The translations under genes were made by a program, and so were the position numbers. A stretch of 25,561 nt of DNA from Plasmodiophora brassicae. Its lineage: Eukaryota. The stretch's first letter is position 1. Each line of letters begins with the position of its first letter. This document shows, in pieces, positions 1 to 25,561 of this stretch. The stretch is taken from assembly GCA_036867785.1 (NCBI GenBank), contig CP145417.1, forward strand, positions 1,364,001 to 1,389,561. Reading direction: 5' to 3'. Under the pieces are notes generated by a model, which was not told the origin of the DNA, ran no database searches, and worked only from the letters and a program-made list of their open reading frames with translations.

Positions 1-334
1 CGGACCTTGTCTACCGGTGTAGTTTACCCTGTCGGGCGCCCAACTGCAGCGTGGCAGACGAACTGCAGCGGATGACGGTGCAGTTCGTCCAAGTGCGTGC
101 GGCGTGCGCCGGTCGGCACGCCCCCGCCGGGCACGTTTATCAGTCGTGTGCTCATGTCCGGACAGGGGGCATGGCCCTCTGCGCGGAATGTGGGCGGAAC
201 GTTCCGGCGGGTCAGCGTGGCGCAGTTTTCGTCACTGCCCAACCCGAGTGCCTGCACCGTCGCTTGTGAATATTGGCGAGGGCGAACGCTTCGGGCGACC
301 TAACCGTAACCGGCTGCTGCATACGCCGTCGTCC

Positions 335-856
335 ATGGGGTAGCCAATATTATCGTCCCGCGAACAGCGCGCCGTGGTCGCTGACCGCTGTGGTGTGCGC
401 AGGCGCCGGAAGATTGCGATCGAGAAGATCGAGGAGGCGAAACGACGGCGCAGCACGTTCAAGAAGCGTCGCGTCGGCCTGCTGAAGAAGGCGGAAGAGC
501 TGGCCGTCCTGTGCGGGTGCAAGGTCGCCATCACGATTGAGTCCGACGATGGCGTCAGCCAGTACTGCAGTGACGACGTTAGCGCGATCATGCGCGCGTA
601 CTACCACGACCTCGGCAGCGTCGGGAACGCGCCCGGCCTCCACGCCATCGTCCTGTCGAACGACGACACCCCTTCATCGTCCATGGGGGGTTCGCACACG
701 GACACCACCCCTGAGGACGCGTGCCGGGCACCCAGTGCGGTCGGGCACCACCCGGACGTCGGTGTCGTTAACGACAGCTCGTACGATCTCCTGCAGCAGA
801 CGCAGGTCATGCTGCCGTCCGGGTTCGCCGACACGTCACAGCTCTATCCCGGGTAG
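335..856 (+). CDS. MADS-box transcription factor 1, MEF2-like; join(335..339,403..856)
   Basis: ATGGG at 335-339 is followed by a 63-nt intron 340-402 (GTAGCC...GCTGAC branch...GCGCAG). Splicing gives MGRRKIAIEKIEEAKRRRSTFKKRRVGLLKKAEELAVLCGCKVAITI, a canonical MADS N-terminus, then a MEF2-like segment SQYCSDDVSAIMRAY. Stop TAG at 854-856. Confidence 0.92.
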
Positions 857-926
857 GGCGCGACGTTAACAATAAAATATCGGGCGTTCGTCTATTTACA
901 CAGAAGGCAGGGGGCGGGAGGCGGAG

Positions 927-1553
927 TCACAGCAGTGCTTCAGCGGCATCGTAGTCGAGCCCGGCGAAGAAGTCGAGCGACGGCCGCGTGCACGCGGGGG
1001 GCAGGTCGAAGGCGGTGGACGTCAGGTAGTGCGCGTCGAGGTCGGTCAGGCTCATCATGCCGGACGCGAACGGCGACGGGTCGTCGGGGCTGGCGGGCGC
1101 GCTCGACAGGACCGGCGACAGGGACCAGTCGAGCAGCGCGCCGTGCTTGAACGCATGGTCGGCAAAGTCTTCCGGCCTGACGAGCGCAGGCAGCGTGCCG
1201 AGGTTGACCAGGTCGGCGGCACTGAAGCTGGCCGCCGTGCTGACCGGGGACCCGTTCTCGACGACCCCGCTGCCGCTGCTATCGTTAACCTTCGACGTCG
1301 CCGTCGCCGTCGTCGTCGTCCTTGCCACCCCGGACGTGATCTGGCGGTACTTGCGAAAGATCGAGTTGATGTCGTCGCTGGCGAACCGCTCGCAGGGCTT
1401 GACGCGGTCGTTGATGACGACGACGACCTGGCTGCCGGACAGGCGCGCCAGCTCGGCCGCCTTCTTCACCAGCCCGACACTGCGCTTCCGCAGCGTCGAC
1501 ATGCGCCGCTTGCTGTCCTCGATACGCTCGATCGGGATCGACCGCCTGCCCAT
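927..1553 (-). CDS. MADS-box transcription factor 2, MEF2-like, 208 aa
   Basis: ATG at 1553 gives MGRRSIPIERIEDSKRRMSTLRKRSVGLVKKAAELARLSGSQVVVVI...FASDDINSIFRKY, followed by an S/T/P-rich acidic tail. Convergent with MADS 1, 70 bp between the stop codons. Confidence 0.92.
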   Translation of the reverse strand: MGRRSIPIERIEDSKRRMSTLRKRSVGLVKKAAELARLSGSQVVVVINDRVKPCERFASDDINSIFRKYRQITSGVARTTTTATATSKVNDSSGSGVVENGSPVSTAASFSAADLVNLGTLPALVRPEDFADHAFKHGALLDWSLSPVLSSAPASPDDPSPFASGMMSLTDLDAHYLTSTAFDLPPACTRPSLDFFAGLDYDAAEALL

Positions 1554-1960
1554 GGTCGACGACGATGATGGCCACGATGATGCCGTGGAACGGAATGCGC
1601 TCTGAGGCTGCACCGTCGGGTCGAGCGACGGCCGAGTGCGACGACGACGCCGGAATTACTCCACCACGGGGGGCCTGACCCGAAATAGCACCGCGCGCGC
1701 GGGCCACGGTTTACGTTACGGAACGTGCGCGATCCGAGCCACGCTTTTAGGCACGTCCCGCGACGAATTTAGAACGCGCCCGGCGAGGGCATCCCGCCGT
1801 CCTTGCGAGGCGCGCCCAAGAGCGTGGGCCGCCGGCAACCCTGAGAGCCGCGGCCGATCCCGCTGACCAGCGCGCCAGCACGTACCGTCGGCCGACCATA
1901 TACAAGCTGGTGGTCACATAATAAGGCCCTCGTTTTTACTGACCGTCGTTTTCATTTGGG

Positions 1961-3361
1961 TCATGATCGGCGCAACAAGGCAAACAGGAGCCTGCAGAAG
2001 ATTCGTGAGCTGAAAGCGCAGACCTTGAGTGCAGCGCCGGCCCCGTAGAGCATCGTCGGCCAGAACCGTAAGTTCAGGGAGCGGAGGAGCGCGTTCCAGG
2101 ACAGGTCGGCGACGATATCGCCGGGTGTGGCGCGTGCATCCCGGGACGCCAGACGGTCGCTGAGCGCGTCCCAGACGGACTCCTTGACGATGCTGGCGGA
2201 CAGCGCCAGCCACGTGGGTGGCGATATCTCCAACGCCCGAGCGACCGCGCTGAACGGTCGCTTGACGAACGATTCGACGCTACGTTTGGCAGGGTTCAGC
2301 GCGAGCAGAACCGCGATGTGCAACGGATTTCGGGTCTCGATGGCTCTGAGTAGCGCCAGCGATGCCGTTAGTTCGGCGTCCATGTCGTTCGTTCCAAGAC
2401 GGCGGCGGGTCCATTGCATCACCTTTCGAATACGGGTCACGTTCGACACAGACTGGTCCATCGACAGCAACCTGGCCGTGGCCAGTACCCCCTGCGGTAT
2501 GAGGACGTTCTTCCCGACAAACTTGGCCGCACGACGACTCGGCTGCGACTTGCCGATAAACTTTACGACCGGCCAGACGGCATTGATGACGCGAGCCACC
2601 CTGTCTTTCCAAGGCGTGCCCTCCTCGGGTGAGAAATCATCATCGTCGTCCGAAAACCAGCTTGGCGCCGCGGTTGGTTCCTCCGCAGGCGACGGCGCCG
2701 CCGGTGAAGGCTGGGACGATTCCGGATTACTGGGCGACCTCAACGACGTCGGGATCGGAATGGACGGTATAAACCGATGGGTTCGCTTTGGAGGCGGCGG
2801 GCGCCTCCTCATTCGTCGCCAGACGTACGTGAGAGCGCCGCCCAGCGCGCCAACCGCCATGATGCCCGCTGCCGTCTTCGTCGGCGTGCGCTTGCTAACC
2901 GGTCGGGCGACGTACCCGGCGTCCGGGCAGTGCCCGACCGCAAACCGGCTCTTGGAGACCGACGTTGTCGTATACTCACTGGTGCCGTCCTGGTGACCGC
3001 GGCGCCATGGGACGATGACGACGACGGTGACGGCAACGGCGGCAGCGACGACGGCGAGGGCGGCAGACACGCCCAGCACGATCCAGAACGTGCGCCGAGC
3101 CATCCCACACAGGCGGCGCTTGTCGACTGCGGGTGCTGATGCGCGCTCGTCATTGTCGCTGTCAGACAGCGACAGCGACGACGGCAGGTCGTCGTCCTCG
3201 TTGCGGCGGCGCCTGACAACCGCGGCCGCAGGCGGTCCCATGACGTGCGCCTCGTGGTCCAGTTCATCCAGCTCTGCCAATAGAGCCTGTTCCGATACAA
3301 ACTGTTCGATGACCAGGTGCTGCTCCAGGCTACCTTCGGCCAGGCCGCCGGCGCCTTCCAT
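1961..3361 (-). CDS. Hypothetical membrane protein, ~466 aa
   Basis: Long ORF from the first ATG (MEGAGG). Acidic N-terminus, hydrophobic segments FWIVLGVSAALAVVAAAVAVTVVVIVPW and AGIMAVGALGGALTYVW, a Pro/Ser-rich linker and a basic C-terminal region. No family recognised; exon structure not verified. Confidence 0.65.
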   Translation of the reverse strand: MEGAGGLAEGSLEQHLVIEQFVSEQALLAELDELDHEAHVMGPPAAAVVRRRRNEDDDLPSSLSLSDSDNDERASAPAVDKRRLCGMARRTFWIVLGVSAALAVVAAAVAVTVVVIVPWRRGHQDGTSEYTTTSVSKSRFAVGHCPDAGYVARPVSKRTPTKTAAGIMAVGALGGALTYVWRRMRRRPPPPKRTHRFIPSIPIPTSLRSPSNPESSQPSPAAPSPAEEPTAAPSWFSDDDDDFSPEEGTPWKDRVARVINAVWPVVKFIGKSQPSRRAAKFVGKNVLIPQGVLATARLLSMDQSVSNVTRIRKVMQWTRRRLGTNDMDAELTASLALLRAIETRNPLHIAVLLALNPAKRSVESFVKRPFSAVARALEISPPTWLALSASIVKESVWDALSDRLASRDARATPGDIVADLSWNALLRSLNLRFWPTMLYGAGAALKVCAFSSRIFCRLLFALLRRS

Positions 3362-3914
3362 CGTGGCCCGATGCCAACGCAGTGCTGACGACGTCGGTCC
3401 GCCAGAACCTGCCAATACCTAAATATAGCAACTTGCGCGTGTGATCAATGCCGCAGTTCACAGACTGCGCAGTTTTGTGGCTTTTCGAAACTGTGGCTCG
3501 ACGAATATTCACCCACTACGGTAGGCTTTAGACGCCTCTGGGGTTGCCCTCTGAACGTATGTCACCGACGTGCCGGCGATGGTCGAGTTAGCCTTTACAA
3601 GAGGGAATCGACGGCGCCGCAGTCTAAGCATACGGTGTGTTCGATCAGATAATGGTGCCGGCGGCCAGATGCTGCTGCAGCCGGCTTCGGGCGGATCGCG
3701 TGCCAAAACTAAACTTCCGTCATGGATCGATCGCCCTCCACCCTTGGCCGGCCGCCCTTTGTGCGTATCGTTCGGTGCTAGTATCTCGTCACAACGTGAT
3801 GATGAACCGTACGAAGTCATCAGCTACGAGCGCGTACGTTACCGTAACGGGATGGGATCGCAGGCTCACTTCCGATCCGCAACCTCACAGCTGGCAAATG
3901 TTTTAATTGATATA

Positions 3915-4448
3915 CTATCGATGCCTCCGGCGAGGTGGTGTTTTCGATTTCAGAACAGGATAGCTGACCTGGTTCTTGCAGTCGTAGTAATGGAAGACGC
4001 ATTCGGCGCGGGATTTGCCTTTGAGAGCGGCGGCGATGGCTGTGAAATTCTTGGGGGTCGCCGCGAACGCCTTCAGAAACGCCGCGTGCTCGTCGTCGGT
4101 CCAGCGCGAGGTGCGGCGCTCTTCACGATCCATCTTCAGCGCCATTGGGTCAGTGACCAGCGAGGGGCGTGTTCGCGATTGAAACAACCGCTCGAACATC
4201 CCGTCTGACAGACGTCGTAACGCCCTCCATGCATCACGAAATGGCGACGTCGCAGGTGCAGGCAATGATACGTTCAGCGACGTGGACGTCGTCGAGGTCG
4301 ATTCTCGACGCTGGGTCCTTGGCGATTTCCGACTTTGTGGCTCAACAAATCCTTCCAACGCCTTACGTTTCGGTGACCGAAACGGGACTCGACCGTTGTT
4401 GGGCACCGCACCTGACGTCACTCGCCGGGCGCCCGGCCTTCCGCCCAT
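3915..4448 (-). CDS. Small SANT/Myb-domain protein resembling the N-CoR/SMRT deacetylase activation domain, ~177 aa
   Basis: SLVTDPMALKMDREERRTSRWTDDEHAAFLKAFAATPKNFTAIAAALKGKSRAECVFHYYDCK matches the DPM...WT..E...F...F...PKNF..IA..L..KS...CV..YY..K pattern of N-CoR/SMRT/Snt1 SANT1. Start taken as the first ATG (4448). Confidence 0.8.
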   Translation of the reverse strand: MGGRPGARRVTSGAVPNNGRVPFRSPKRKALEGFVEPQSRKSPRTQRRESTSTTSTSLNVSLPAPATSPFRDAWRALRRLSDGMFERLFQSRTRPSLVTDPMALKMDREERRTSRWTDDEHAAFLKAFAATPKNFTAIAAALKGKSRAECVFHYYDCKNQVSYPVLKSKTPPRRRHR

Positions 4449-4753
4449 ATTCTCGTGTGTGATGAATGTAACGCATGGGCGTTGGTGGGACGAGCTGGGC
4501 ACGCGCCAATTTATTCATGACGTATCACGTAGCGACCGAGCGTGCGCTTCCTAGGTTTCATAGCATGCCTATACATGCTGCCCATGGTTATACGTTCTGC
4601 AGCACAGGCAGCCTCCGCTACGAGCAGCGTGTGCCCCTGAAATAGCAGTCTGGCACAGCGGGCGGCGCGTCCCGAATTAGTCGCACGGTTCGAAGCTGGT
4701 GGTCGAGATCGCAGCTCGACCTTACTGATCACGGCCAGGGCGCCCGCTCGACC

Positions 4754-5335
4754 ATGGGCAAGGTTGCCGTCGCGATTGCCCGCATCCATGACAAGAAGAA
4801 GCGCTCGGCGACGTACCTGAAGCGATCGGCGGGCCTCATCAAGAAGGCGGAAACGCTGGCAGCCCTGTCCGGCTCGCACGTTGTCGTTGTCGTCCGCAAT
4901 CGTGATGTGCGACGCAAGCCGGCCGCCTCCGATGTCATGACGTACACGTCTGGAGACATCAACGTGATCTATAGCCGGTACAACGATGCTATGCGGAGCA
5001 TGCTCCAGGAAGACGTGAACGATTCGGCACCTGAACCACAGGCGGTGGAGGCAGTGCCGACAATGGCAGAGACCGCTGGCCTTTCGACGATTGAGGAGCA
5101 TGTGTCCACGACGAGCACGACGCTGGACATGGCCTGCTTACCGCGAATTAAGCTGCCAGTGGACCCGATCGTCGAAGGCGGGCACTCGGGCATGCTGGAC
5201 CTGACCCCGATCCCAGACATTTGGCGGACGCGTGATGCGTCCGGCAGGCCGATACTGACGCCGCGCCGGTCTCCCAGGAATCATGTCGGCAGCGTGTTCG
5301 GCTGGGCGACGCCCCACCTGACCACTCCCAAATGA
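4754..5335 (+). CDS. MADS-box transcription factor 3, divergent, 193 aa
   Basis: MGKVAVAIARIHDKKKRSATYLKRSAGLIKKAETLAALSGSHVVVVV...TYTSGDINVIYSRY. ACCATGG start context. Confidence 0.88.
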   Translation: MGKVAVAIARIHDKKKRSATYLKRSAGLIKKAETLAALSGSHVVVVVRNRDVRRKPAASDVMTYTSGDINVIYSRYNDAMRSMLQEDVNDSAPEPQAVEAVPTMAETAGLSTIEEHVSTTSTTLDMACLPRIKLPVDPIVEGGHSGMLDLTPIPDIWRTRDASGRPILTPRRSPRNHVGSVFGWATPHLTTPK

Positions 5336-5420
5336 TCCCTGTACCATCCGACGTCTATTCATCAACATGTTGTGCGTAAATAACATTGTCAGCTATTATA
5401 GTTGAATCGTGTAACATATA

Positions 5421-6229
5421 CTAGTTGATGGTGATGGAGCATTTGCAGCACACGATCCTGTACAACTTGTACATGCAGGATTCCATGTCGTCGCACGACG
5501 GAAGGCAGTCGCATGCGGGGCACTCGGGCATCTGGATGGAACAATCGGCGCATTCCGGGCACGACAGATCGGGGAGAGACAGTGCGGCTGCCTGTTGACC
5601 CTCCCGTCCCGCCGCAGCGCAGACCAGCGCGAACGCACCTGTCAATGTGAACCCGACGATGTACAAGACCTTCACAAACAGCCATCCGCCTTGCACCGCC
5701 TCGGACCCGTCCTATCACCGTTATCAGCGCCTCGAGGGCAACCCGGGGAATCAACGTGGAAGACCTGAACTGATGCCCCAGCGTATAGACCGTACAGAAC
5801 CAGGGAGATCGTCAGGGTGCCCAGGACGACCAGAGCCTGCCCGAGACGCGGCATTCGCAAACAGGGCGCGAACCCGTCCAGCAGAATCGACGACGGTCTG
5901 CGTTCGTCGAGGTCGCCCTGCCTTGCCGAAGTGCCGCCCTTCAACGTTGGAAGGTGTTGCTGCCCCATCGGTTGTGATGTGACTGTTTGCTGAACCCCAG
6001 CGATGCCGTCGCGTTCTCTGTCGAGTTTAGCTTTCCGGAGGCGCGAGATGATCATCATGCGATGGCCAGGTCTGAGCGGCGGCGCGTCCTTGTCGGCAGC
6101 GACCAGATCTAGCATGGCGTCCCAAGCGTCCTTATCCTCGGATAGGATGAAGTCGCGGTCGGTGAACCCGAGGCGCGTGAACGACGGCAGGTAATCGCTC
6201 AGTGGAGGGCCGCCGAGAATATCCTCCAT
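5421..6229 (-). CDS. SAM-like domain, two-TM, Cys-rich-tail protein; complement join(5421..5711,5765..6229), ~251 aa
   Basis: N-terminal LSDYLPSFTRLGF...LRPGHRMMIISRL resembles a sterile alpha motif. A 53-nt phase-0 intron at 5712-5764 (GTCTTC...GCTGAT...GATAG) joins two ORFs in frame, giving two hydrophobic helices and the tail CPECADC...CPACDCLPSC...CCKC. Confidence 0.6.
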
Positions 6230-6879
6230 ACTCGCACGTCGACCCCCTCGACGAACCTGACACTGGCTCCCCCTGCCCAGTACGTACGAATCACACCGCT
6301 CTAACTGGCTGTCAAACACGACCATGAATCGGTGGCATGATCGACAGCAAAAGTATGCGACGCCTGCAAAAGCCAATTCCACTCTCCATCCGCGGTTCGA
6401 TTGGTTCTGCAATTAGGCGCGCGCGCGCAAACGTCTTCGACGGCTCCATAGCTATCGACATCGATGTCCAACGTACGCCCTTTCTTAGCCTTCCCCAATG
6501 CTGCTGTACGTGTATAGCGCCCAGATTCTCCTTCAAGGTCGGCTATGCAGAAAGTGCCACGTCTGCTACAAGGAAAATGGTGCCCAAACGACGTTGCCAG
6601 CGGGTAGGAAATGTGTTTGGGGCGTACAAATGCGCCAATTGACTCTGCTTCCGTCTACCGAGTTCCTCCCGGAACGATGGCCATTATCTGTGCGATCACG
6701 TTCCACTATCTGCAGTGGAAGTTCGGCTGTCCCCAGTTCATCGCCGAGCTTGTCCAACTTGCTGTCCACCTGCGTCTGCAGCCCGTCACTGTGGTTGATC
6801 CATCGTCATCCGAAGTCGGCCACCATTGGTGGACGACGTCGGGAACGCGATCCGCATCTGATCCGCGTCCGCTACGCTT

Positions 6880-7330
6880 CACGAACAGGTTTCATGGCCC
6901 GGTTGACGTCCTCCTTCTTCACCGGACCGACTTGCGAAGAGCGGCGGGCAGAGAAGCGGTTGGCCGCCTTCCGCACCTTGCCCTTCTTGAACGTGTCCCG
7001 CTCTGGACCTGTTCAGGATGTCGGTATGCGCGAAACGGACGGGTGCCACAAGCAAACGATCCGGGTTTGTCGCCAATTCCTCCGGCTGCAAGACGCGATG
7101 CTCCTCGATTCTCGCGTTCAGCGCCGCACCGCAAGCGGGATCGGGGCCGGCGTTGCTCGTGGCGCCCGTCCGTTTCGCCCACACTGGTACCCTGAACGCA
7201 TCCGCGCAGGCCATGTACGTTCGAGAAGGGCAAGGTGCAGAAGGCAATGCACCGCTGCTCTGCCCGGCGCTATTCCCGAGTACGATCCTGTGAAGAAGGA
7301 GGACGTCAAGCAGGCCTTGAAAGCGTACGT
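6880..7330. repeat. Long imperfect inverted repeat, arms ~6880-7064 and ~7146-7330
   Basis: The reverse complement of 6901-6994 (ACGTTCAAGAAGGGCAAGGTGCGGAAGG...GTGAAGAAGGAGGACGTCAA) aligns with 7217-7310 (ACGTTCGAGAAGGGCAAGGTGCAGAAGG...GTGAAGAAGGAGGACGTCAA). The reverse complement of 7024-7058 aligns with 7151-7184. Confidence 0.85.
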
Positions 7331-7649
7331 ACCCGCTTCTGTCGGTCCGCGCCAGTCGCTGCGGTCGTCCAATTCACCAACGGTCGCAAGGCGATGTCGG
7401 CACAGGTCCACACCGCTGTCAAGCGCATCCTGGACGCGTGGCCTCATTCAGGTTCCCCGGATGCGTAGCAGCGTTGCCCCCCGTATACATGGAAATTCAA
7501 TCATTGGATTCATGCGGTTTACTGACGACATCCACAGTCAGCACCTGTAAGCAGTCGGCCCTCGAGGTATATATACTGGCGCCGTGCATGAAATTCTCGT
7601 CACGCCAATGAGGCACTGCAGGTCGTTCATCATGGCTTCCGCCATGCTG

Positions 7650-7745
7650 GCCGATTAATCCCTGACGTGGATGGCGATTCATGCCGATTAATACCTGGGA
7701 TGGACGGCGATTCATGCCGATTAATTCCTGGGATCATGGCGATAC
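7650..7745. repeat. 33-bp minisatellite, ~3 imperfect copies
   Basis: Unit GCCGATTAATACCTGGGATGGACGGCGATTCAT starting at 7650, 7683 and 7716. Confidence 0.85.
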
Positions 7746-7907
7746 GAGAGAATAATCTCGTTGACGGCTTCTTCCAGACAGTGGGACCGGTATGCGTACC
7801 GGTCCCGGTCCCATACTGGTTTCCAGACTATTTAGCGCAAGACACAGGACGCGTATTATCAAGCAAGACGCCCCAATTCCATCAGTATACCGGTCAAAGA
7901 ATTCAAC

Positions 7908-8312
7908 ATGGCCATGTCGAAGAACCATAAGATCATCATTGCCGTTGTCGTGTCGGTGCTCGTCTTAACCGGTCTCGCTGTCGGCCTGTACTTCGCGTTG
8001 CGGCCGAACCCCGCGGTCGAGGAGCTCAGGGACATTGTGCAACGCGCGAAGAACACCCCCAAGGATGACGCGAAAGCACAAGAAACGATTTTGAAGGACC
8101 TGTTGGAGTGGGTGAAGAAGTACGGGATAAAAATTGAAAGTATGTCCAAGAAGGATCAGAGGACGATCGGCGAGCTCAGAGACGAGTTGAATTCTGTCTA
8201 CGAGGGACATGCGCGCGGAGCTCATGTACAATTTGGTCAGCATCAGAATACGGACGCCGCGCCCGTGATGCAGAACGGTGCAGACGGCCAGCCTGAGGGG
8301 ACTGCCTTCTAA
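7908..8312 (+). CDS. 134-aa protein with N-terminal signal anchor, copy A
   Basis: Intact ATG-TAA ORF. KIIIAVVVSVLVLTGLAVGLYFAL hydrophobic helix followed by a charged helical domain. The frame is kept without indels in both duplicate copies while the flanks have indels. Confidence 0.85.
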   Translation: MAMSKNHKIIIAVVVSVLVLTGLAVGLYFALRPNPAVEELRDIVQRAKNTPKDDAKAQETILKDLLEWVKKYGIKIESMSKKDQRTIGELRDELNSVYEGHARGAHVQFGQHQNTDAAPVMQNGADGQPEGTAF

Positions 8313-8782
8313 CGGAGCCAGTGATGGGATAAACCAGGAAACCGGCTTGACGTGTTAACGAACCAACCAATATTGGTCGCTGCCTGCAGGCCTAGGCAGG
8401 ATATCGAATGTCGCCGTCTGCATGCACCAGGACGTCGCGCGCGCAGCCCGCCCTCGTCCATGCTTGCCATCGAGCCTGATGTAATCTTCTTCTTCCACCC
8501 AGGCGGGACGGAGATCACTGGCGTTTGTGCCTTGATCAACCAATGCCTGCGCACGTCAGCTTGTTCACACTCGGAACTGAGCGTGCGACACGGCGCCCAG
8601 CAATGGCGAAGGTTTGAACCCCGTTCTTTGTAGGCGTGCTCCATGGTATGCGTCTTTTTGTCCTGGTGAGGCGGTGCCACCCTGGAGCAGGCGCCGCTGT
8701 TAGTGTCGACGCTTGTGACAGCCTTCCGTCGGTCATTGACGTCATCCGGGCGGGGGGCGTCTGACGGCCACCCCAGATTTGG

Positions 8783-9029
8783 ATGTCCTTGCGTCCCATA
8801 CGCGGACGTCGCCTGCTCATCGGTTCGGGTGTCGCCCTTCTTGTCGCCGTCGTCCTCGACATCGGGTACCAGTACTGCTACCTGCTCGGCTTCCCGTCTG
8901 CCGACATGTGATACTACGTTGCTGGGGACCTGGGCGGCACCTACTGCCGCCTGATCCTCGTGCAGGTCGGGATCATACGGTCCCCACATTGGTTCCCTGC
9001 GACAGGAACCTAACCACATTGTGGTCGAC
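8783..9029 (+). pseudogene. Truncated duplicate of glucokinase exon 1 and intron 1
   Basis: Homologous to 13595-13832. CGA>TGA stop at 8909-8911, GGTN changed to GGTY, and homology ends just before the intron-1 acceptor AG. Confidence 0.9.
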
Positions 9030-9147
9030 GTACGTACAGGCCGTCTCTGGGCCCGAAGCCTTTACTGGGAGTCGCGACCAACTGGTCACGCGTCTTGCAA
9101 TGCTCGCCCTGTCTGCGTTGCTCGTCAGGCCTTGTCCGCCGTGGTGC

Positions 9148-9216
9148 AGGCGCAGGTGGGGGCGACGTAGGCGCAGGTGGGGGCGACGTAGGCGCAGGTG
9201 GGGGCGACGTAGGCGC
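9148..9216. repeat. 21-bp tandem repeat, 3 perfect copies plus a partial copy
   Basis: AGGCGCAGGTGGGGGCGACGT x3. A single related copy lies at ~24479-24502. Confidence 0.95.
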
Positions 9217-9414
9217 CCTCGATCGGCGACAGGCGTCACGCCTGCACGGATTGCAGAGAACGCCGATGTCCGGCGCCGGCTGACGCCAGGAAGATCTGGA
9301 GGTCCTGTGTACGCGCGTACCCACCTCTTCTGCTTCTATTGATCGGCCCAGGTTGTGGCGATACTCCGGCAGGGATGGTGGCGGATCGCATGTCGGCTAG
9401 CGGCTCGGGAGCTG

Positions 9415-9435
9415 CCCCCCCCCCCCCCCCCCCCC
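9415..9435. repeat. C21 homopolymer
   Basis: 21 consecutive C. Confidence 0.95.
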
Positions 9436-10283
9436 GCCGCCCTCCTGGACGGCCTGCAGGGCAGACAGGCGTCGCTCGAGATCATGCCGACTGGGAGCTC
9501 GGTGTCATCCTTGGTTGGTCGGCCCGCCATCGACGTGGTGCAGGGCAGGGGCGCACGCGACCGATTGCAGCAAACGGCAGACGGCCAGATCGCCGCCTGA
9601 GCTGAGGAGCAGGTCCGCGCGACGGTGGACCCCAACCTCCCCTCCCCCACGCCTAGGCACGACGACTGCCGGCGCCCTGCTGGTCATCATGCTGGACGGG
9701 AGACGGCATGCGACGGCAGGTGTGCCCTGTCCAGCACTCTCAGGACATCCAAACTGTTGATACGAGGTTCCAGGATCTGAACAAATAACGTTGTTAGACG
9801 CGGTCTTCACACGAGACTCCACCCAACCTGCAGCAGTGACACATATTGGCATTCCTCTATCACACCCTTCGTTGACGCTCCTGGAGGGCAACATGCTGGC
9901 CGACCGGCGTCATCAGCCTGCTCCTGAACGACTTCGGGCACATGTTCAGGGACGACGGTCCTGGTAACTGGGCGGCTGGTGAACTCGTCGCTTGGAAAAC
10001 GTTGTTCTTCAGCGTAACCGATGCACACGACAACGATGATAGTGGCCGGACAAGCCGTGCGTCACGCGCCGGTGTACCCCCTCTTAACAGGGGAGACACT
10101 GAACACCTCCCAGCTTGCAGATCGCATGAACGCAAACGAAACCACATCGCAGGCATTCTGACCGTTATAAACTGCCGCGTGATGGAGGCTGACGATGTAT
10201 ACCAAGCTCCGTTGTCGCCCTGCTGCGTCCCCTGGCACCAGGACACATAGAGCTGGATCTCCTCTAGGTGAACCGGCCTTGGT

Positions 10284-11880
10284 TTATTTCTTGGGTTCCC
10301 CGTGGAGGTAGTAGACCCAGGGCGGTACAGTGGCCTGGTCGGCGCCGCCCGTGCGTGTAACGACCAGCTTGCCGTTCGTGGGCTGGGCCACTGGAACCCG
10401 ACCTGTATGCTGACCTCCTTCTTCGTATCGACCGTTTCGCCCTTCTTCCCGATCGTGAACGCCGGATTGTCCACCGTGTAGACGAACTCGCTGCGCTGGC
10501 CAAACACGTTCCTGAACCGGACGGCCTGCGAGGCCCCCGCTGTGATGCTGATGGGGCCCTCCGGTCGTGGCACCGAGCAGTGCCCGTGCAGAGCGCATCG
10601 GTACTCGCCGGCATCCGTCGACGTCACCTTCAGCTCATCGCGGACGTCGTTCAGGCCGGACGGGTCGAACAGGACCGTCACCTGGCACTCGACACCGGTG
10701 TCGCCGTTCGCGTCTGCGCCGGCGCACGTGACCTTCTTGTCCCCGACCACCTCCAGGTCACGGCAGTCAGGCATCCATATCGAAACCTAGGCGGTTACCA
10801 ACCTGGAACGCTTGACCACCGACGAACGAACACTCGTAAGTGGTCGGCTTCTTCGACCACGACAGGAACCGGAAGCGCTGGGTGCAGGTCGCCCCGAGGT
10901 ACGCGTCGAACCTCAGCGACGCATCGACGGCGGCCGCGCACGCCTGCAACTCGAGCTCGTACGGGAAGTCGCCCAGCTCGGCGGACGATAGCGTCAGGCG
11001 GACGCGCTGTGGCCCGGCAGCAGGGCGCCCCACGACCAACGGCCGGTACGCGATCGAGACGAGCGTCTCCCGTCGCGCCGTCAGCCGTACGGGTAGACCG
11101 CGAACGTCGACATCGGGCGACTCGCACGAGAACGACGTCAGCGTGCAATCGCGACCCAGCCTGTTCTCCAGCGGCACGCTCGTCAGCGCGCGCTGACGCA
11201 CCGGCGACTGCAGGGCGATGCGATCGATGATGCCGGCGTCGGTGACGACGATCGTCAGACGGTGCACGAGGTATTCGCCTGTGGGGCCCACGCGCGTCAC
11301 ATGATCGTTCAACGGACGTCCACGCACGCATCGTGTGTGTGCCGCCCACCGTTGTCGTCGTTGACGAACTTGACGAGGGCGACCGTCGTGCCGGGACGGT
11401 ACGCGTAGATCTGGAGGCGCACGTCGCGCGACACGCCCCCGGGGACGCCGACCGAGTCGCCGGCTGTGATCGACACGGTGTCATCGGGCGGCGACTCGCG
11501 CTGGATGTCGATGCGGAACCGCTGCGGGTCGTGCAGCCAGTTGCGGACGGGCAACGTGTGGGTCGACGCGCACTTGGCCCGCACCTGGCACGCACCGTCG
11601 GATTCCAGCGCCGGCGCCTGCGTCCGACCCTGCAGCCGGTAGGACAGGGCCGACCCGGTCGGCAGCGCCATGAAGAGCGTCCCTCGGTGCAGGTCGGCGG
11701 CCGTGGTCAGCGGCGCGTACACGACGGCCAGGTTGCAGGTGGCACCGGCGGGCACCTCCAGGTCGGGGGCGGACCACGCCCCGTCGCTGATCACCGGATG
11801 CAGCTGCCACGTCGACGTCGACGTGTTCGTGATCGGCACCTGCACGGTCTGCGACCCACGTACGGTGGCGTCGAACGCCA
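10284..11880 (-). pseudogene. HYDIN: 5'-truncated HYDIN fragment (C-terminal ~490 codons, Ig-like/ASH repeats), 2 introns, 1 frameshift
   Basis: The C-terminus PRPEGPISITAGASQAVRFRNVF...VDNPAFTI...GKLVVT...WVYYLHG* matches the HYDIN end as I recall it (PKPQGPFSI...FKNVF...VDNPAFTI...WVYYLKG). Introns at 11279-11349 and 10751-10802 (the latter with an atypical GAG acceptor) join the ORFs in frame. A frameshift lies near 10390. There is no 5' part: the sequence abuts duplication copy B at 11881. Confidence 0.85.
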
Positions 11881-12523
11881 GGACGGGTGCCACAAGCAAA
11901 CGATCCGGGTTTGTCGCCAATTTCTCCGGCTGCAAGACGCGATGCTCCTCGATCCTCGCGTTCGGTGCCGCACCGCAAGCGGGATCGGGGCCGGCGTTGC
12001 TGGTGACGCCCGTCCGTTTCTCCCACACTGGTACCCTGAACGCGTCCGCGCAGGCCATGTACGTTCGAGAAGGGCAAGGTGCAGAAGGCAATGCACCGCT
12101 GCTCTGCCCGGCGTTATTCCCGAGTACGATCCTGTGAAGAAGGAGGACGTCAAGCAGGCCTTGAAAGCGTACGTACCCGCTTCTGTCGGTCCGCGCCAGT
12201 CGCTGCGGTCGTCCAATTCACCAACGGGGCGCAAGGCGACGGCGGCACAGGTCCACACGGCTGTCAAGCGCGTCCTGGACGCGTGGCCTCGGCTCGACGC
12301 CGCACTTAAGCTTGAATAATACATTCGTGCAAGTGCCCCGGACGCGCAGCAGCGTTGCCCTCCGTATACATGGTGATTCACTCATTGGATTCATGCGGTT
12401 TACTGACGACATCCACAGTCAGCACCTGCAAAGTAGTCGGCCCTCGAGGTATACTGGCGCGTGCGTGAAATTCTCGTCACGCCAATGACGCACTGGCCGT
12501 TCATCGTGGCTTCCGCCATGCCT

Positions 12524-12618
12524 GCCGTTTAATCCCGGGCGTTGATGGCGATACATGCAGATTAATACCTGGGATGGATGGCGATCAATGCCGATTAATT
12601 CCTGGGGTCATGGCGATA
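12524..12618. repeat. 33-bp minisatellite, copy within duplication B
   Basis: Three diverged GCCGATTAAT...ATGGCGAT units homologous to 7650-7745. Confidence 0.8.
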
Positions 12619-12775
12619 CTAGAGAATAATCTCGTTGACGGCTTCGTCCAGACAGTGGGACCGGTACGCGTACCGGTCCCATACTGGTTTCCAGACTATT
12701 TAGCGCAAGTCACAGGACGCCTATTATCAAGCAACACGCCCTAATTCCATCAGTATACCGGTCAAAGACTTCAAT

Positions 12776-13180
12776 ATGGCCATGTCGAAGAACCATAAGA
12801 TCATCATTGCCGTTGTCGTGTCGGTGCTCGTCTTAACCGGTCTCGCTGTCGGCCTGTACTTCGCGTTGCGGCCGAACCCCGCGGTCGAGGAGCTCAGGGA
12901 CATTGTGCAACGCGCGAAGAACACCCCCAAGGATGACGCGAAAGCACAAGAAGTGATTTTGAAGGACCTGTTGGAGTGGGTGAAGAAGTACGCGAACAAA
13001 GTTGAAAGTATGTCCAAGAAGGATCAGAGGACGATCGGCGAGCTCAGAGACGAGTTGAATTCTGTCTACGCGGGACATGCGCGCGGAGCTCATGTACAAT
13101 TTGGTCAGCATCAGAATACGGACGCCGCGCCCGTGATGCAGAACGGTGCAGACGGCCAGCCTGAGGGGACTGCCTACTAA
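12776..13180 (+). CDS. 134-aa protein with N-terminal signal anchor, copy B
   Basis: Intact ORF; differs from copy A at 6 residues. Confidence 0.85.
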   Translation: MAMSKNHKIIIAVVVSVLVLTGLAVGLYFALRPNPAVEELRDIVQRAKNTPKDDAKAQEVILKDLLEWVKKYANKVESMSKKDQRTIGELRDELNSVYAGHARGAHVQFGQHQNTDAAPVMQNGADGQPEGTAY

Positions 13181-13594
13181 CGGAGCCAGTGATGGGATAA
13201 ACCAGGGAACCGGCTTGACGCCAAACCAATATTATTGGTCGCTGCAGGCCTTGGCAGGATATCAATGTCGCCGCCTGCATGAATCAGCACGTCGCGCTGC
13301 CCGCCCTCGTCCATGCTTGCCATCGAGCCTGATGTTCCGCTTCTGCTTCCATCCAGGCGGGACGGATATCACTGGCGTTTGTGCCTTGATCAATCAATGC
13401 CTGCGCACGCCAGCTTGATCACATTCGGAACTGAGCGGGCGACACGGCGGGTGCTCCATGGTATGCGTCTTTTTGTCCTGGTGAGGCGGTGCCACCCTGG
13501 AGCAGGCGCTGTTAGTGTCGACGCTTGTGACGGCCTCCCGTCGGTCATTGACGTCATCCGGGCGGGGGGCGTCTGACGGCCACCCCAGATTTGG

Positions 13595-15011
13595 ATGTCC
13601 TTGCGTCCCATACGCGGACGTCGCCTGCTCATCGGTTCGGGTGTCGCCCTTCTTGTCGCCGTCGTCCTCGGCATCGGGTACCAGTACTGCTACCTGTTCG
13701 GCTTCCCGTCTGCCGACATGCGATACTACGTTGCTGGGGACCTCGGCGGAACCAACTGCCGCCTCATCCTCGTGCAGGTCGGGTCCCCACATTGGTTCCC
13801 TGCGACAGGGACCTAACCACATTGTGGTCGACAGGTGGCCCCGGGGCTGAAGGAGACGGTCGTCGCTGAGAAGACGTACAGGTCGGCGGAGCACGCCCAC
13901 CTGGTCGCCGTCCTGGAACGATTCCTGGTCGATTCGGGTGCCAGTCGTGGCCGGCACCCGACCGTGGCCTGCATCGCCGTGGCCGGTCCGGTCACGTCCA
14001 ATCGCTTCGCCCAGATCACCAACCTCGTAAGGCGCCGGCTACCGGCCTTGCTGTACTGCCTGCCCCATACGCGACGCTGATGAGCGGTCGCGCGTCGATG
14101 CACGTAGAACTGGACGCTGGATGCCGCCGCCATTGCCGCCCAACTGGACATCAGGGACGTGTTCTTCCTGAACGACTTTGTGGCAATCGGGTATGGCCTG
14201 CTGGCCCTGCGTCCTGGCGATTACCTGACGATCAACGACGTCGCCGGCCAGCCCGGGGCGCCGATCGCGTGCCTGGGCGCCGGCACGGGCCTCGGTGAGG
14301 TGTACCTGACACACAACGGCGACGAGTACGACGTGTGGCCATCCGAAGGCGGTCACGCCGACTTCCCGGCGCGGACGCGCACCGAGTTCGACCTGATGGA
14401 GTTCATACGGCGCCGCGCCGGCATCGATCGCGTCAGCGTCGAGCGGATCGTGTCCGGGTCCGGCCTGCCCCTGATCTACGACTACTTCAAGGACGGGCAC
14501 GCCGACCTGGTCAGCGACCGCGTCGACGCCGACCTGTCCGCCAGCGGCGCCGACCGCGCCGAGATCATCGCGCGACACGCTCTGCAGGACACCGATGTCC
14601 TGTGTCGTCGGGCGTTCGACACGTGGCTGTCTGCGTACGGTGCGGAGGTACGTACGTCGGCACACACGCACACGCCGGGATCGTTCTGTTGACCGCGCAC
14701 AGGCAGGCAACATGGCGCTGAAGACGCTGTGCTTCGGCGGGCTATACATCGCCGGCGGGATTGCCCCCAAGGTCGTGTCGTCGTTCAAGACGGGCGACGA
14801 CCTGTTCTGGAAGGCGCTGTCGTCCAAGGGGCGCATGCGCGATGTGCTCGAGCGTATCCCGGTGCACGTCGTGACGCGGCCGAACGTCGGCATGCTGGGC
14901 GCCCAGCTCGTCTGCCTGAGGCGCTTCCAGCGCGTCCTCGATCACGACGACAAGGATGACGACGACCCGAAGCTGACCGCAGATGACGGAACAAACAAGA
15001 CCAGCTTATAG
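13595..15011 (+). CDS. glk: Bacterial-type (Glk family) glucokinase with N-terminal hydrophobic anchor; join(13595..13777,13835..14026,14108..14647,14703..15011), 407 aa
   Basis: Motifs GDLGGTNCRL, VAGPV, ITNLNW, NDFVAIGYG, GAGTGLG, SEGGH, SVERIVSGSGL, GGLYIAGGIAPK and KGRM..L..IPV. Three phase-0 GT-AG introns (57, 81 and 55 nt) restore one frame. Confidence 0.95.
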
Positions 15012-15201
15012 GCGGGTACATATATACGCGTCTTCCTGCCTGCATGCCTACCCGTAGCAGGGACGCGCAGACTGAGGACACGAGGAGCGTTAGGAGAGAG
15101 ATGCATGAGTCGTACAGGGGGGCGCCTTGCAGTGCAGTGACGTGTGCTTCCGGTCACCCGACGCTGAGCCCGGTGCTGACCGGCACCACAGACCCCCTGC
15201 G

Positions 15202-15816
15202 ATGGCCAGGCGCCTGCTCGTCGGCGCGGCAATCGGCGCGCCCGCCGCGACGATCGCGGCGTTGCACACGTGCATCGTGCAGGTGCCCGTGCCGGACGCG
15301 TCGCTGCTGGCGCGGGACGCCGCCCACCGGGCGAGCCTGGACCCAGCGTACCGCTCGTACACGGACGCGTTCCGCGTCCGCGTTCGGACGCGTCGCCGAC
15401 CGTCGATCGACCAGTGCCTGCAGGCGTTCATCGAGTCGCCCGTGTTCACGCTCGAGCGCCGCCTACACGTGTGGAACGGGCTGGCCCGCCCTGATCCGAC
15501 GGGCCGGTCGACGTTCGACGTCGGCAGCGTCGTCTCCCTGTGGACGGTCGTGCACAAGACGGACCGTGCCGTCCTGCTGCGCTGGGGGCATCCCAGCCTG
15601 GCGCTGCGAGGGTCGACGTTCCTGCAAGCGACGCGGGTCGACGGGGACGACGACGCCCACGCCATCGACGTCGTGTTCGGATCGGGGCTAGACCTCCCAG
15701 CCAGCCTCGATGACACGTCGCTGGGCTGGAGAGCGGCGTCGGCAGCGCATCGCCTCTTCTCCCGCGTCCTGCTGGCGTCCACCGTCCTCCAGATGAAGTA
15801 CCACGGGGTCATCTGA
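15202..15816 (+). CDS. Hypothetical protein, 204 aa (possibly DUF2867-like)
   Basis: ATG at 15202, strong G/C third-position bias, hydrophobic N-terminus. Motifs YTDAF, AFIESPVFTLER, WTVV...VLLRWG, VFGSG and HRLFSRVLL. The family guess is tentative. Confidence 0.75.
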   Translation: MARRLLVGAAIGAPAATIAALHTCIVQVPVPDASLLARDAAHRASLDPAYRSYTDAFRVRVRTRRRPSIDQCLQAFIESPVFTLERRLHVWNGLARPDPTGRSTFDVGSVVSLWTVVHKTDRAVLLRWGHPSLALRGSTFLQATRVDGDDDAHAIDVVFGSGLDLPASLDDTSLGWRAASAAHRLFSRVLLASTVLQMKYHGVI

Positions 15817-15908
15817 CGCGCGCTGTGAGCGTCGTGTGTGGCACACTGGCGGCCTCGGGGAACTTCCCTGGAACGGGAACGCATCCGGCGACATATATTG
15901 TAGACTGA

Positions 15909-16646
15909 TTACAGGGGTAGCGGGTACTGCTGTTGCTGCTGCTGCTGCCGTACACGGTCGGTGATGCCACCTTGGGACGGCGGCGGTGGCGGCATCGGCC
16001 ATCCTTCCCAAGGAGACCCGGCGCCGATGATGACATCACCGAACAGTTCGGTATCGGGCGGCGGCGCCCATTGCTGCTGCTGCTGCTGCTGCTGCTGCTG
16101 GGTGCGATTGTGGTGGTGCGCCGCCTGCAGAATCTCGGCCGCCACCAAGTTGCTCGCAATGTGCATGCTCGGCGACGTCGGCATGGCGGCGGCCGCCTCC
16201 TGCTGCTGCTGGTGCGCGGCGTCGACGTCGTAGTGGTAGCCGAGCGGAGGGAACGGGTTCGCGCCTGGCATCGGCGCCTGCCCGCAGAGCTGCGGTGGCG
16301 GCTGGACGACCTGGGCGACCAGCGGCTGCGTCAGCTGGTGACGCGTCGTCGTGATCACCTGGTTCGTGCCCTTGTACAGGCGGGACGATCGCCCCGGCTG
16401 GTCGACGACCTCGACCTCGCCCTCGAACGCGACGTACGACTGCCACAGGTGCTCGATGTCGTCCGCCGAGCTGAACTGGGCGCATTTCGCCTTCGACTTG
16501 TGCATGACGACCAGTGCGACGTCGACGTCGCAGAGGACGGCCAGCTCTTTGGCCTTCTTGATCAGGCCCAGGTTGCGCTTGCGGAACGTCGCCTCGCGCT
16601 GCTTGCGCTCGTGGATGCGCATCATGGGCAGCTTGCCGCGACCCAT
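15909..16646 (-). CDS. MADS-box transcription factor 4, MEF2-like with polyQ/Pro-rich tail, 245 aa
   Basis: MGRGKLPMMRIHERKQREATFRKRNLGLIKKAKELAVLCDVDVALVVM...AQFSSADDIEHLWQSY. Q10 tract at 16071-16100 plus shorter Q runs. Confidence 0.93.
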   Translation of the reverse strand: MGRGKLPMMRIHERKQREATFRKRNLGLIKKAKELAVLCDVDVALVVMHKSKAKCAQFSSADDIEHLWQSYVAFEGEVEVVDQPGRSSRLYKGTNQVITTTRHQLTQPLVAQVVQPPPQLCGQAPMPGANPFPPLGYHYDVDAAHQQQQEAAAAMPTSPSMHIASNLVAAEILQAAHHHNRTQQQQQQQQQQWAPPPDTELFGDVIIGAGSPWEGWPMPPPPPSQGGITDRVRQQQQQQQYPLPL

Positions 16647-17038
16647 AGGATTGGATGGGCCGCCGGAGCCGCCGTCCCGATGTCTGTGCCGATGCGCCAC
16701 ACAGGCCCGGGCGCGACGCGCACTGGGCGGCAAATGGAGCTCCTGGGGCCGACGGGCGACGTTACTGGCCGCAGCGCTCTCTTCTCGCTCTCCCTCTGTG
16801 GCCCGCGCAGTCCGCCACGCAGTGCCCCGCACCGGACCCTTACGACACGCCTTACCTTTGCCCGACGACACCAGACGCGCTCGGTCAGATAGGGTACGCC
16901 CGGGCGTCATGTTGCCAGCGTTGACCCAGTGCAGCAGCGGTAATTGGACGGCGGCACCGCAGCCGCCGTCCTGTGCAGCACCGGCCGCGCATAGACAATG
17001 TGGGCGCGCGCCCGAGGCAGCCGCCGTGCCGTGCCGTG

Positions 17039-17198
17039 CAGCGCAACCGCAGTGCAGCTGCCGCACAGTGCAACTGCAGTGCAGCTGCCGCACAGCGCAA
17101 CTGCAGTGCAGCTGCCGCACAGCGCAACTGCAGTGCAGCTGCCGCACAGCGCAACTGCAGTGCAGTTGTCGCACAGTGCGACTGCAGTGCAGCTGCCG
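17039..17198. repeat. 27-bp minisatellite, ~6 copies
   Basis: Unit CAGCGCAACTGCAGTGCAGCTGCCGCA repeated head-to-tail with few substitutions. Confidence 0.95.
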
Positions 17199-20717: not shown

Positions 20718-22684
20718 TTATGTAAGCCGTTTCCCAGCCAATTCGGCCTCATACTTGTTGACGATGGGCTCAAGGACCTGCAAGACGCGATCGACGTTGA
20801 CGAACAGCTCGGATCCGTGTTCGCCGCTATCGGATCGTATGATCGTGTACGAAACGTTCAGCTTCGTTGCCGTGATCTTGTGGCAATCGTTGTACCAGTC
20901 GTTACCGAGCATGCCCACCTTCATGTAGATCTCAAGGATCGATGCGCCTGCACGCATAAACATTGAATTGGACAGCCCTGTGAAGGCATCCAGATCAGTT
21001 AACAGATAAGGGACCTGAAAGGGAGCCCCATCACGAACCTGCGCCATGAGGCCCGACGACGATATCAGCGTTATAGTGCATCGTGATCATATCGGGGACG
21101 CTGTCGCTAGGTGCAAACACGACTGTGTCCGCATTGGAGAACTTCCGGCGGATGGCTTCGACCAGGTCATCGTGGTTAGATATCGTCCTGGAGCCCGACC
21201 CACGATGCTGGATGACTATCTGGACATTGTCCTTGCGATCGCATAGCTCCGGGTGACGTTTGCTCCATTGCTCGCGGAACAGATCGCGAAACTGCCGCGC
21301 GGCTCTCGTATTCGCGCGAACTGAACTCAACGCTGTCAGTTGTATACAATGCATGTCAGCAGCAGATGAACCCACTCAGAGCCGTTGCTGTTGGCACCAG
21401 CAAACGCTCAACCTTGTACGCAGAACGAGGCGAATATGAAATGAAACGTGAGCGATCCAGCCCTGGTTGTAAGATGTGTAAGCCGGTGAGCAGAGTCAGT
21501 CGCAATCAAACCATGCTAACCGATGAGTTCATGGAGGAGCCATAGGCCATCTCTCGGCGGGTCATACGCGATGACTTTGACGCTAGGATTCTGCAGAAGG
21601 AAGTCGCGCACCAAGGCGAGTCGCAGGAACGACTCGATGAACCAGTGGTAGTACCTGACGACCCTACGCTTAGAACCCGGAACGCCAATGACTCTTGAGT
21701 GCGCCTTACCATGACCCCCAGTACTGTGCGATCAGTACGGCCGTCCCGGGGACCTCGTTTACAGCAGGATGCACTCGGGACAGAGGGTATGGGTCTACAA
21801 ATTTGTCAGGTCCTCCCTCCAGACCTGGGACAACGTGGGGGGCGACTTACTCCAGTGCGGAACGTCAGCTCCTCCAGGACGATACACCGTCGAACAGTCA
21901 TAAATGACGGATTCGTCACCCGTCACGTACGCCTATAGGAGACAGCGAATCAGAGACTGCAGCGGCGTCACGAGACACGCCAAAGGCAGACATGTTTGAA
22001 CAGGACGACCATGCCCTTCACTTCGTCGTAGTCGTAAGCGGGCAACCGGACGAACGAGATGCCGTGCGTACTGGATGATTCCAAAACGCCAATATCCTTG
22101 ATAACAGTGGTGATCGCGTTAGGTTCGTGGAACAAGGCCATGGACAAACAATTCCGCCGTCAGTAAGTACATACATGCTGTTGGTTGCCGATCGAAACCT
22201 CGATGCTGGATCTCGGGCAGCATGCGGATTGATGGCTTCAGAGCGAGAGTATCGAACGACGGCGCCCTCAGAGGGCGACCAATATGGTTATCGAGGTCTT
22301 TCGGTACAGAGACCTCGAAGGAGGAGGATACCCAGGGTGCGGCGTAGAGGTTGGAAACCAGAGCCCGGATCGCGAATGCAGTAGCAGTGCAGAGTGCGAG
22401 CAGGGTCAGTGAGGCGATCGCGGCGCGACCGGGATGCCTCTTCCAAGTCGCCAAACGGTATCGTATCGATGCACGCCACCGATGTGGAAGGAACGTAGGC
22501 AGGCCATGCACAGGCTGCCGTTGCATCTGCATCAACACTGGACGCTTGGATCTCGGCTCGTCTATTTCCGTTTCGCGGACCGGAGTCCTCTTTGATCCTT
22601 GCTGCCCCGAAGATCCGATCCTTCGGAACGGTGGGCGTGATTCACGGGCCGTCCGCTACGGAACATACCTCTTACATTCCCCAT
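20718..22684 (-). CDS. Glycosyltransferase family 61 (DUF563-like), type II membrane protein, multi-exon
   Basis: Spliced exons give the TM segment AAIASLTLLALCTATAFAI, QYWGSW|YYHWFIESFLRL (~21650), R..SRTISNHDDL, and ADIVVGPHGA|GLSNSMFMRAGASILEI (last intron 20978-21038). The 5' end is uncertain: either ATG 22684 with a mini-exon, or an ATG near 22530. Confidence 0.85.
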
Positions 22685-25213: not shown

Positions 25214-25561
25214 GTTTTTTTTAGGGTTTTTTTAGGTTAGGGTTTTTTAGGGTTTTTTAGGGTTTTAGGGTTTTAGGGTTTTAGGGTTTTAGGGTTTTAG
25301 GGTTTTTTAGGGTTTTAGGGTTTTAGGGTTTTAGGGGCTTTAGGGTTTTTAGGGTTTTAGGGTTTTAGGGTTTTAGGGTTTTAGGGTTTTAGGGTTTTAG
25401 GGTTTTAGGGTTTTAGGGTTTTAGGGTTTTAGGGTTTTAGGGTTTTAGGGTTTTAGGGTTTTAGGGTTTTAGGGTTTTAGGGTTTTAGGGTTTTAGGGTT
25501 TTAGGGTTTTAGGGTTTTAGGGTTTTAGGGTTTTAGGGTTTTAGGGTTTTAGGGTTTTAGG
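25211..25561 (+). repeat. Telomeric array (TTTTAGGG)n
   Basis: About 350 bp of TTTTAGGG to the window end, G-rich strand running 5'->3' toward the end, with variant units in the proximal ~140 bp. Confidence 0.99.

Follow-up and report, generated by a model that had tools for sequence, protein, structure and literature searches.

Four divergent MEF2-type MADS-box genes, probably old local duplicates, at a chromosome end of Plasmodiophora brassicae

A 25,561-nt stretch of contig CP145417.1 of Plasmodiophora brassicae contains exactly four MADS boxes, each in a gene of its own. The genes, here called g1 to g4, are in mixed orientation and all lie within ~16 kb (Table 1). We use "the window" for the whole of this stretch. 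A six-frame scan with a profile made from g1-g4 gave four matches with E ≤ 2.2e−38 and a next-best match of only E = 0.28, so the window has exactly four boxes and no relic boxes between them. PF00319 (SRF-TF) is the sole Pfam domain in each gene, and all four genes pass its gathering cut-off of 26 bits. The Pfam scan found no K-box (PF01486) in any of them; thus, these are not MADS genes of the plant MIKC type. A preliminary description of the same DNA had listed four MADS genes in mixed orientation within ~16 kb and had placed them in a protist. All four were recovered at the same positions, and P. brassicae is a rhizarian. We hold it probable that g1-g4 are old, locally duplicated MEF2-type paralogues at a chromosome end, in an unusually large species family, with g2 and g3 as sisters, g1 as the next branch and g4 as part of an older lineage shared with Spongospora. 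By analogy, the box would bind DNA as a dimer, and the tails behind it differ.

The window takes in the final 25.5 kb of one P. brassicae chromosome. Degenerate copies of TTTTAGGG start at ~25196 and lead into an array that runs to the 3′ end of the window. A telomere repeat of the TTTTAGGG type has been reported for P. brassicae (PMC6823432; PMC11191646). The distance to the repeat is 8.6 kb for g4 and 24.9 kb for g1, with the other two genes in between. The location is therefore subtelomeric, as the preliminary description had proposed, and g1-g4 lie within tens of kb of the telomere as members of a subtelomeric family do.

All four genes appear to be MEF2-type and not SRF-type. The invariant columns of the DNA-binding helix (K, R, G, L, K, K, A, L, L in the pattern KR..GL.KKA.EL..L) are kept in g1-g4 and across 32 relatives. 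A type profile, made from the boxes of g1-g4 plus a Spongospora protein, was searched against all Protein Data Bank (PDB) sequences. The 14 MEF2 sequences scored 73.5-85.1 bits, with alignments that reach profile position 72-83 and so cover the MEF2 extension, whereas SRF and MCM1 scored ~47 bits with alignments that stop at position 62-66, and SEP3 scored 42.8 bits. One member of the four, g3, was also folded (residues 1-100, with a 32-row alignment). The model has a mean predicted local distance difference test (pLDDT) score of 86.7 and shows one helix (14-39), two strands (44-48 and 61-65) and a second helix (69-89), which is the MEF2 order of helix, two-stranded sheet and C-terminal MEF2 helix. 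Foldseek returned MEF2 chains first for this model (root mean square deviation 2.0-2.5 Å, template modelling score by target 0.61-0.82), while SRF chains deviated by 6.7-10 Å. Both the profile scores and the predicted fold of g3 favour MEF2 over SRF, in agreement with the MEF2-like assignment made earlier. The motifs that had been read from the sequence are also present: KRSxGL and LSGSxVVVV are common to g2 and g3, and ELAVLC is common to g1 and g4. A MEF2-like extension of the form (Y/F)xS(x)DD(I/V)..I...Y had been described in each gene. The extension itself is found in all four, but the DD is not, as g3 has GD at this place. The C-terminal tails were described as unrelated, and they do not align with one another; that of g4 is glutamine-rich and that of g2 has an acidic-hydrophobic end.

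Public proteins identical to our four models exist (P0262 for g1, P0261 for g2, P0119 for g3 and P0265 for g4), all from the window's own contig. SPQ98500.1 (Plasmodiophora brassicae) falls within the 90%-identity cluster of g1. The existing annotation names only g1 as a MADS-box domain-containing protein. The spliced product of g1 begins MGRRKIAIEK and is encoded by a 5-nt first exon followed by a 63-nt GT..AG intron. g1 and g2 are convergent, with 70 nt between their stop codons. Some details of the 5′ ends differ among models. An in-frame ATG 150 nt upstream of the g1 start (185) begins another assembly's model, P0263 (201 aa), and RNA contigs reach back from position 335 by 320 nt or more. 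The g4 frame is open upstream as far as an ATG at 16910, and RNA contigs pass 17000. The public model P0001 of g4 (238 aa) begins at MMRIHERK, seven codons into the MADS box, and its N-terminal arm is therefore truncated.

Contigs of four runs from four studies were aligned to positions 1-17000. Three of the runs are RNA-like (X1, X2 and X5) and one is DNA-like (X15). Six joints with GT..AG borders (CT..AC on the minus strand) were found in X1, X2 and X5: 338->402, 4133->4189, 5710->5764, 13774->13832, 14026->14108 and 14645->14701. X15 has none of the six; X1, X2 and X5 thus contain spliced RNA. The g1 intron is removed (338->402) in X1, X2 and X5, i.e., in three studies. RNA-like contigs cover g2 at 882-1591 (X1), 402-1589 (X2) and 926-1630 (X5), and g4 at 16108-17000 (X1, X2), 15143-16064 (X2) and 15988-16528 (X5). 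Three of the four genes, g1, g2 and g4, are thus transcribed, and a lack of expression, which was named beforehand as a reason to doubt the locus, was not what we found for them. The contigs give neither an expression rank nor a life-cycle stage.

The same contigs and other assemblies point to constraint on the boxes. X5 has 10 listed differences from the window in g1. Two of these are in the box (residues 1-75) and both are synonymous; the other eight are in the tail (76-152), where they include five amino-acid changes (T91A, M96I, P105A, A114V and S127I) that also occur in P0115 and P0263. Between strains g2 differs at 1/208 residues (I72V), and g4 differs at 0/238 residues from the protein of another assembly. 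Across g1-g4 the G+C content of third codon positions (GC3) is 0.76-0.92, vs. 0.42-0.52 at second positions (GC2). Conserved boxes with drifting tails are as expected of working DNA-binding proteins that have fast-changing effector tails, and we suggest this reading for the sequences at hand.

In supplementary table 1 of Qiu et al. (2023; PMC10484287), P. brassicae has 11 MADS genes, none of them SRF-type and all 11 MEF2-type, and the main text likewise gives the species MEF2-type genes only. These are genes of the same species and the same type, and theirs is the family to which g1-g4 belong. Most protist rows in part 2 of 14 of their table have 0-3 MADS genes. In that part P. brassicae has the largest MADS complement among the protists of the stramenopile, alveolate and rhizarian (SAR) group, and outside land plants its 11 genes are equalled by Allomyces macrogynus (11) and exceeded by Absidia repens (14), both fungi. 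Four of the 11 accession numbers lie within a stretch of 27 numbers, and another two within a stretch of 9. Such clustered numbers would fit this block plus a second, smaller one; they are not mapped to the window and serve as a lead only. Supplementary tables 1-3 give the count, accessions and structure scores, and these parts of the source hold no map positions and no mention of clustering or of a subtelomeric location.

The grouping was compared with chance by placing 11-14 family members at random in a genome of 25.3 Mb (size from PMC11191646). Groups of four genes within 16.3 kb would then be expected 4e−7 to 1e−6 times. As the observed grouping is far above this, the genes arose by local duplication, and the estimate shows nothing more than that. 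Local duplication is a common way for gene families to grow. The local density, which would be unremarkable if MADS genes were numerous and scattered, is remarkable, with four genes in 16.3 kb against a published 11 in ~25 Mb. More than a third of the MADS complement of P. brassicae appears to lie within one 16-kb subtelomeric block.

The duplications are not recent. Box identity among g1-g4 is 40-52%, about as low as their identity to the MEF2-like protein P0191 (33-48%), and their branches in the tree are long, which bears out the earlier view of old paralogs and not recent tandem copies. When a profile was run against 1.84 billion representatives, 9956 of them matched with E ≤ 0.001, the window genes and a Spongospora protein on top. 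From the best 150 matches, after a FastTree of 128 single-box matches, we picked the rows for an IQ-TREE tree of 32 rows x 85 columns; it has no SRF-type rows, and the profile used to choose its rows was built from g1-g4 themselves. A 19-row clade (support 99/96) contains every named phytomyxean sequence. Nested in it is a 7-row clade (87/72) that unites g1-g4 with two Spongospora proteins and P0136, a protein obtained from sequencing-run data. g2 and g3 are sister to each other (98/83), and g1 joins them in the arrangement (g1,(P0136,(g2,g3))) with 91/85. g4 pairs with a Spongospora subterranea protein, P0002 (92/84), with which it shares 40/58 box residues; a Spongospora subterranea MADS protein is also its best non-self relative (E 3.2e−26), and P0002 is likely to be the orthologue of g4. 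P0151 (CEO95830.1), a P. brassicae paralogue on another contig (1,123,131 bp), lies outside the 7-row clade, and a tree that forces it into one clade with g1-g4 was rejected by the approximately unbiased (AU) test (p = 0.0029). Our reading of these relationships is that the block was made by old local duplications, that the lineage of g4 is older than the separation from Spongospora and that g1-g3 make up a separate, rapidly evolving lineage.

Among 30 representatives that were looked up, CEO95830 was the sole further named P. brassicae MADS gene, and a word-index search with g4 found zero paralogues. The best 150 representatives include no Spongospora member of the g1-g3 clade. In a metagenome scan 11 loci matched, ten of them 1.0-1.5 kb long and the other 12 kb, with a low G+C content (0.32-0.42), 30-38% identity and one box each; none of them is a close relative, so that they carry no information on synteny.

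Several points weigh against the reading of g1-g4 as an old, ordered set of working paralogues. Neither a clade of g1-g4 alone (p = 0.0875) nor a pair of g1 and g4 (p = 0.083) is rejected by the AU test, so that more than one order of duplication fits the data. This also divides the earlier grouping of g1 with g4, which was based on ELAVLC: the tree joins g1 to g2 and g3 instead, but the pair is among the arrangements that the test retains. g1, g2 and g3 are all long branches and attraction may inflate their grouping; in a tree from which g3 and P0136 were removed, g1 and g2 still pair, weakly (82/43). The tree held just one other named P. brassicae MADS gene, CEO95830, so that the claim that g1-g4 are each other's closest paralogues comes from an incomplete sample of the family. 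The count of 11 belongs to another assembly's annotation and need not include all of g1-g4. It is wholly by analogy that g1-g4 are credited with binding DNA, forming dimers and switching programmes. The remaining points concern g3. Its N-terminal arm is MGKVAV, vs. MGRR or MGRG in the other three, and so is without the basic residues found there in MEF2. Among public records, its protein comes from the contig of the window alone. Its box is covered by just two contigs, one from X5 and one from X15, and both carry two frame-breaking indels, an extra G behind 4857 and 2 nt missing at 4895 (+1 and −2).

For g3, and perhaps for g2 too, these features could mean a pseudogene in the making or a dimerising partner that does not bind DNA and damps other MADS proteins. 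We regard this as possible but not likely. Apart from the arm and the twice-broken frame, g3 has the longest end branch in the tree (2.28), the lowest box identity of the four to the MEF2-like protein (19/57) and an 8-residue insert between two strands of the box. On the other hand, the frame is open over 193 codons in this assembly, its GC3 is 0.76 vs. a GC2 of 0.49, the invariant helix residues K23, R24, G27, K30, K31 and L35 are kept, and the fold is predicted confidently. The indels themselves may not belong to g3. The X15 contig that carries them has a depth of 143.9, about twice the 74-79 of the flanking contigs (ending at 4687 and starting at 5020), and has a loose end at 4632, which looks like a second, frameshifted copy of ~4632-5020 elsewhere in the genome, though it may be an allele of g3. 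X1 and X2 have no contig over 4537-5103, which makes them unusable as evidence on the expression of g3, and no look-alikes of g3 of 30-338 aa were found in a collection of 5.8 billion proteins.

Subtelomeric regions are prone to misassembly, and this one has a 2-kb internal duplication, so the grouping could be imagined to be an assembly artefact, or else a chance co-location of unrelated genes. We give either idea almost no credence. DNA-like contigs of X15 are collinear with the window, with zero differences, over 1-2468, 2500-4687, 5020-7066 and 13641-16064, and one RNA contig spans g1 and g2. Chance is opposed by the expected number of groupings, below 1e−6, and by the tree, which groups the four genes. 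MADS proteins act with mating-type factors in yeasts, and the preliminary description had suggested mating or compatibility control, i.e., a locus at which alternative sets of MADS alleles define compatible partners. Meiosis-related genes have been reported for P. brassicae (PMC6823432), and the tail of g1 differs at 5/77 residues between strains. Against this, contigs of all four runs carry the same genes in the same order with at least 95% identity, and even in X5, a divergent strain, 541 nt of g4 show no difference. The locus diverges by 0-2.3%, within the range reported for two strains across their whole genomes (98.67% similarity; PMC11191646). Diverged alternative haplotypes were not seen in the contigs of the four runs, a small sample and a weak test. 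The suggestion of a mating-type locus has thus fared poorly, and we consider it very improbable.

The reading of g1-g4 as old local duplicates of MEF2 type can be set beside several known systems. Animal MEF2A-D (PDB 1EGW, 8PDE, 6BZ1, 3KOV and others) have the same layout, an N-terminal MADS box with the MEF2 extension directly after it. The tails of g1-g4 are short (~75-170 aa) and unrelated to animal MEF2 tails, and the arm and the insert set g3 apart from animal MEF2 as well. Vertebrate MEF2 paralogues are dispersed in the genome, whereas g1-g4 are linked. Flowering-plant type I (M-type) MADS genes form tandem arrays that resemble g1-g4 in their local duplication, fast divergence and short proteins without a K-box. 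They belong to another kingdom, expanded independently and are not subtelomeric as a rule, unlike g1-g4. Among protists, Phytophthora infestans PiMADS and Dictyostelium SrfA are MADS factors tied to sporulation or spore maturation (PMC8256667). Both are single genes with tested functions, whereas g1-g4 are four linked, divergent paralogues known from sequence and, for g1, g2 and g4, from transcript contigs.

By analogy with the solved MEF2 structures, the MADS box and MEF2 extension of g1-g4 would dimerise and bind A/T-rich sites, and the short, unrelated and fast-evolving tails would presumably recruit different partners. MEF2-type proteins recognise CTA(A/T)4TAG in dimeric form. The genes may in this way switch developmental or stress programmes, e.g., resting-spore germination or sporulation, as suggested by the MADS factors of other protists. 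A MADS transcript rises during resting-spore germination in Spongospora (PMC8256667). Control of life-cycle or stress programmes is our best guess for the function of g1-g4. The preliminary description had suggested a linked combinatorial regulator locus, e.g., for life-cycle stage, an idea for which the analysis gave no support. A bolder proposal would make the block a developmental switch locus specific to Phytomyxea, in which pairings of the paralogues set the germination, zoospore, plasmodium and sporulation stages and the nearby telomere brings silencing that depends on the stage and a rapid turnover of copies. If so, g3 and the frameshifted copy that resembles it would be signs that genes are still being gained and lost among pathotypes. 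We think this unlikely.

The genes themselves and the family size had been made public before. What is added here is the clustering at a chromosome end, the lineage formed by g1-g3 and the peculiar status of g3. Of the open-access papers and preprints that we searched, none deals with where the MADS genes of P. brassicae lie, whether they cluster or what they do. The block would be a rare case outside land plants of a locally expanded and strongly diverged MADS family, and it bears on how such families grow. To our knowledge, P. brassicae is not culturable and the control of its life-cycle transitions is largely unknown. g1-g4 would offer a compact, tractable set of candidate stage regulators.

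Table 1. Features of the P. brassicae window, in order of position.
Feature	Position	Strand	Details
g1, MEF2-type MADS-box gene	335..856	+	exon 1 335-339 (ATGGG), intron 340-402, exon 2 403-856; 152 aa; PF00319 60.8 bits
g2, MEF2-type MADS-box gene, single exon	927..1553	-	208 aa; PF00319 41.2 bits
466-aa gene, no Pfam family	1961-3361	-	between g2 and g3
MEF2-consensus word CTAAATATAG	3419..3428	.	sole perfect match in window
Gene with Myb/SANT domain	3915..4448	-	between g2 and g3; PF00249 33.9 bits vs. cut-off 24.4
g3, most divergent MADS-box gene of the four	4754..5335	+	193 aa; PF00319 42.1 bits
Glucokinase gene, spliced (PF02685)	13500-15011	+	three introns confirmed by contig joints
g4, MEF2-type MADS-box gene, glutamine-rich tail	15909..16646	-	245 aa; PF00319 55.0 bits
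Glycosyltransferase family 61 fragment	20718-21354	-	neighbouring gene
Telomere repeat (TTTTAGGG)n	25245..25561	+	Tandem Repeats Finder (TRF): period 8, 38.9 copies, 96% matches; also read directly

The single match to CTAAATATAG compares with 0.01 expected from 100 shuffles. The 466-aa gene has its ATG 58 nt downstream of this word, and its RNA contigs end at 3396-3414. The word could equally be a TATA box and may serve only as a lead as a MEF2-type site. The CArG box has one match vs. 0.33 expected in the window, which is not notable. The four 300-nt upstream regions have no word of at least 8 nt common to three or more of g1-g4. The gene with the Myb/SANT domain has a 55-nt intron (4133->4189; X2, X5). 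The length is not a multiple of three; splicing therefore parts the upstream ATG from the Myb frame, and retention of the intron gives a 177-aa Myb ORF (open reading frame). This gene is a neighbour of the cluster, and we claim no tie between it and the function of the MADS family.

The window has a G+C content of ~0.55-0.72 per kb and contains no tRNA genes and no Rfam matches. Between g3 and g4 is a direct segmental duplication of 2.0 kb (7037-9029 and 11881-13832), the copies of which are ~90% identical. It includes two copies of an ORF for a 134-aa membrane-anchored protein (7908-8312 and 12776-13180) and also takes in the 5′ part of a gene at 9860-12058. The sequence abutting the telomere (23728-25213) has a 67-68% identical copy ~15 kb inward (9028-9697), directly after the first copy of the 2-kb duplication. 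The inward copy may be what is left of an earlier chromosome end, or it may stem from a subtelomeric repeat element. A 27-nt tandem repeat at 17032-17198 (6.2 copies, 92% matching) lies between the upstream region of g4 and a 676-aa ORF at 17270-19300, which has weak P-loop/STAND-like matches only.

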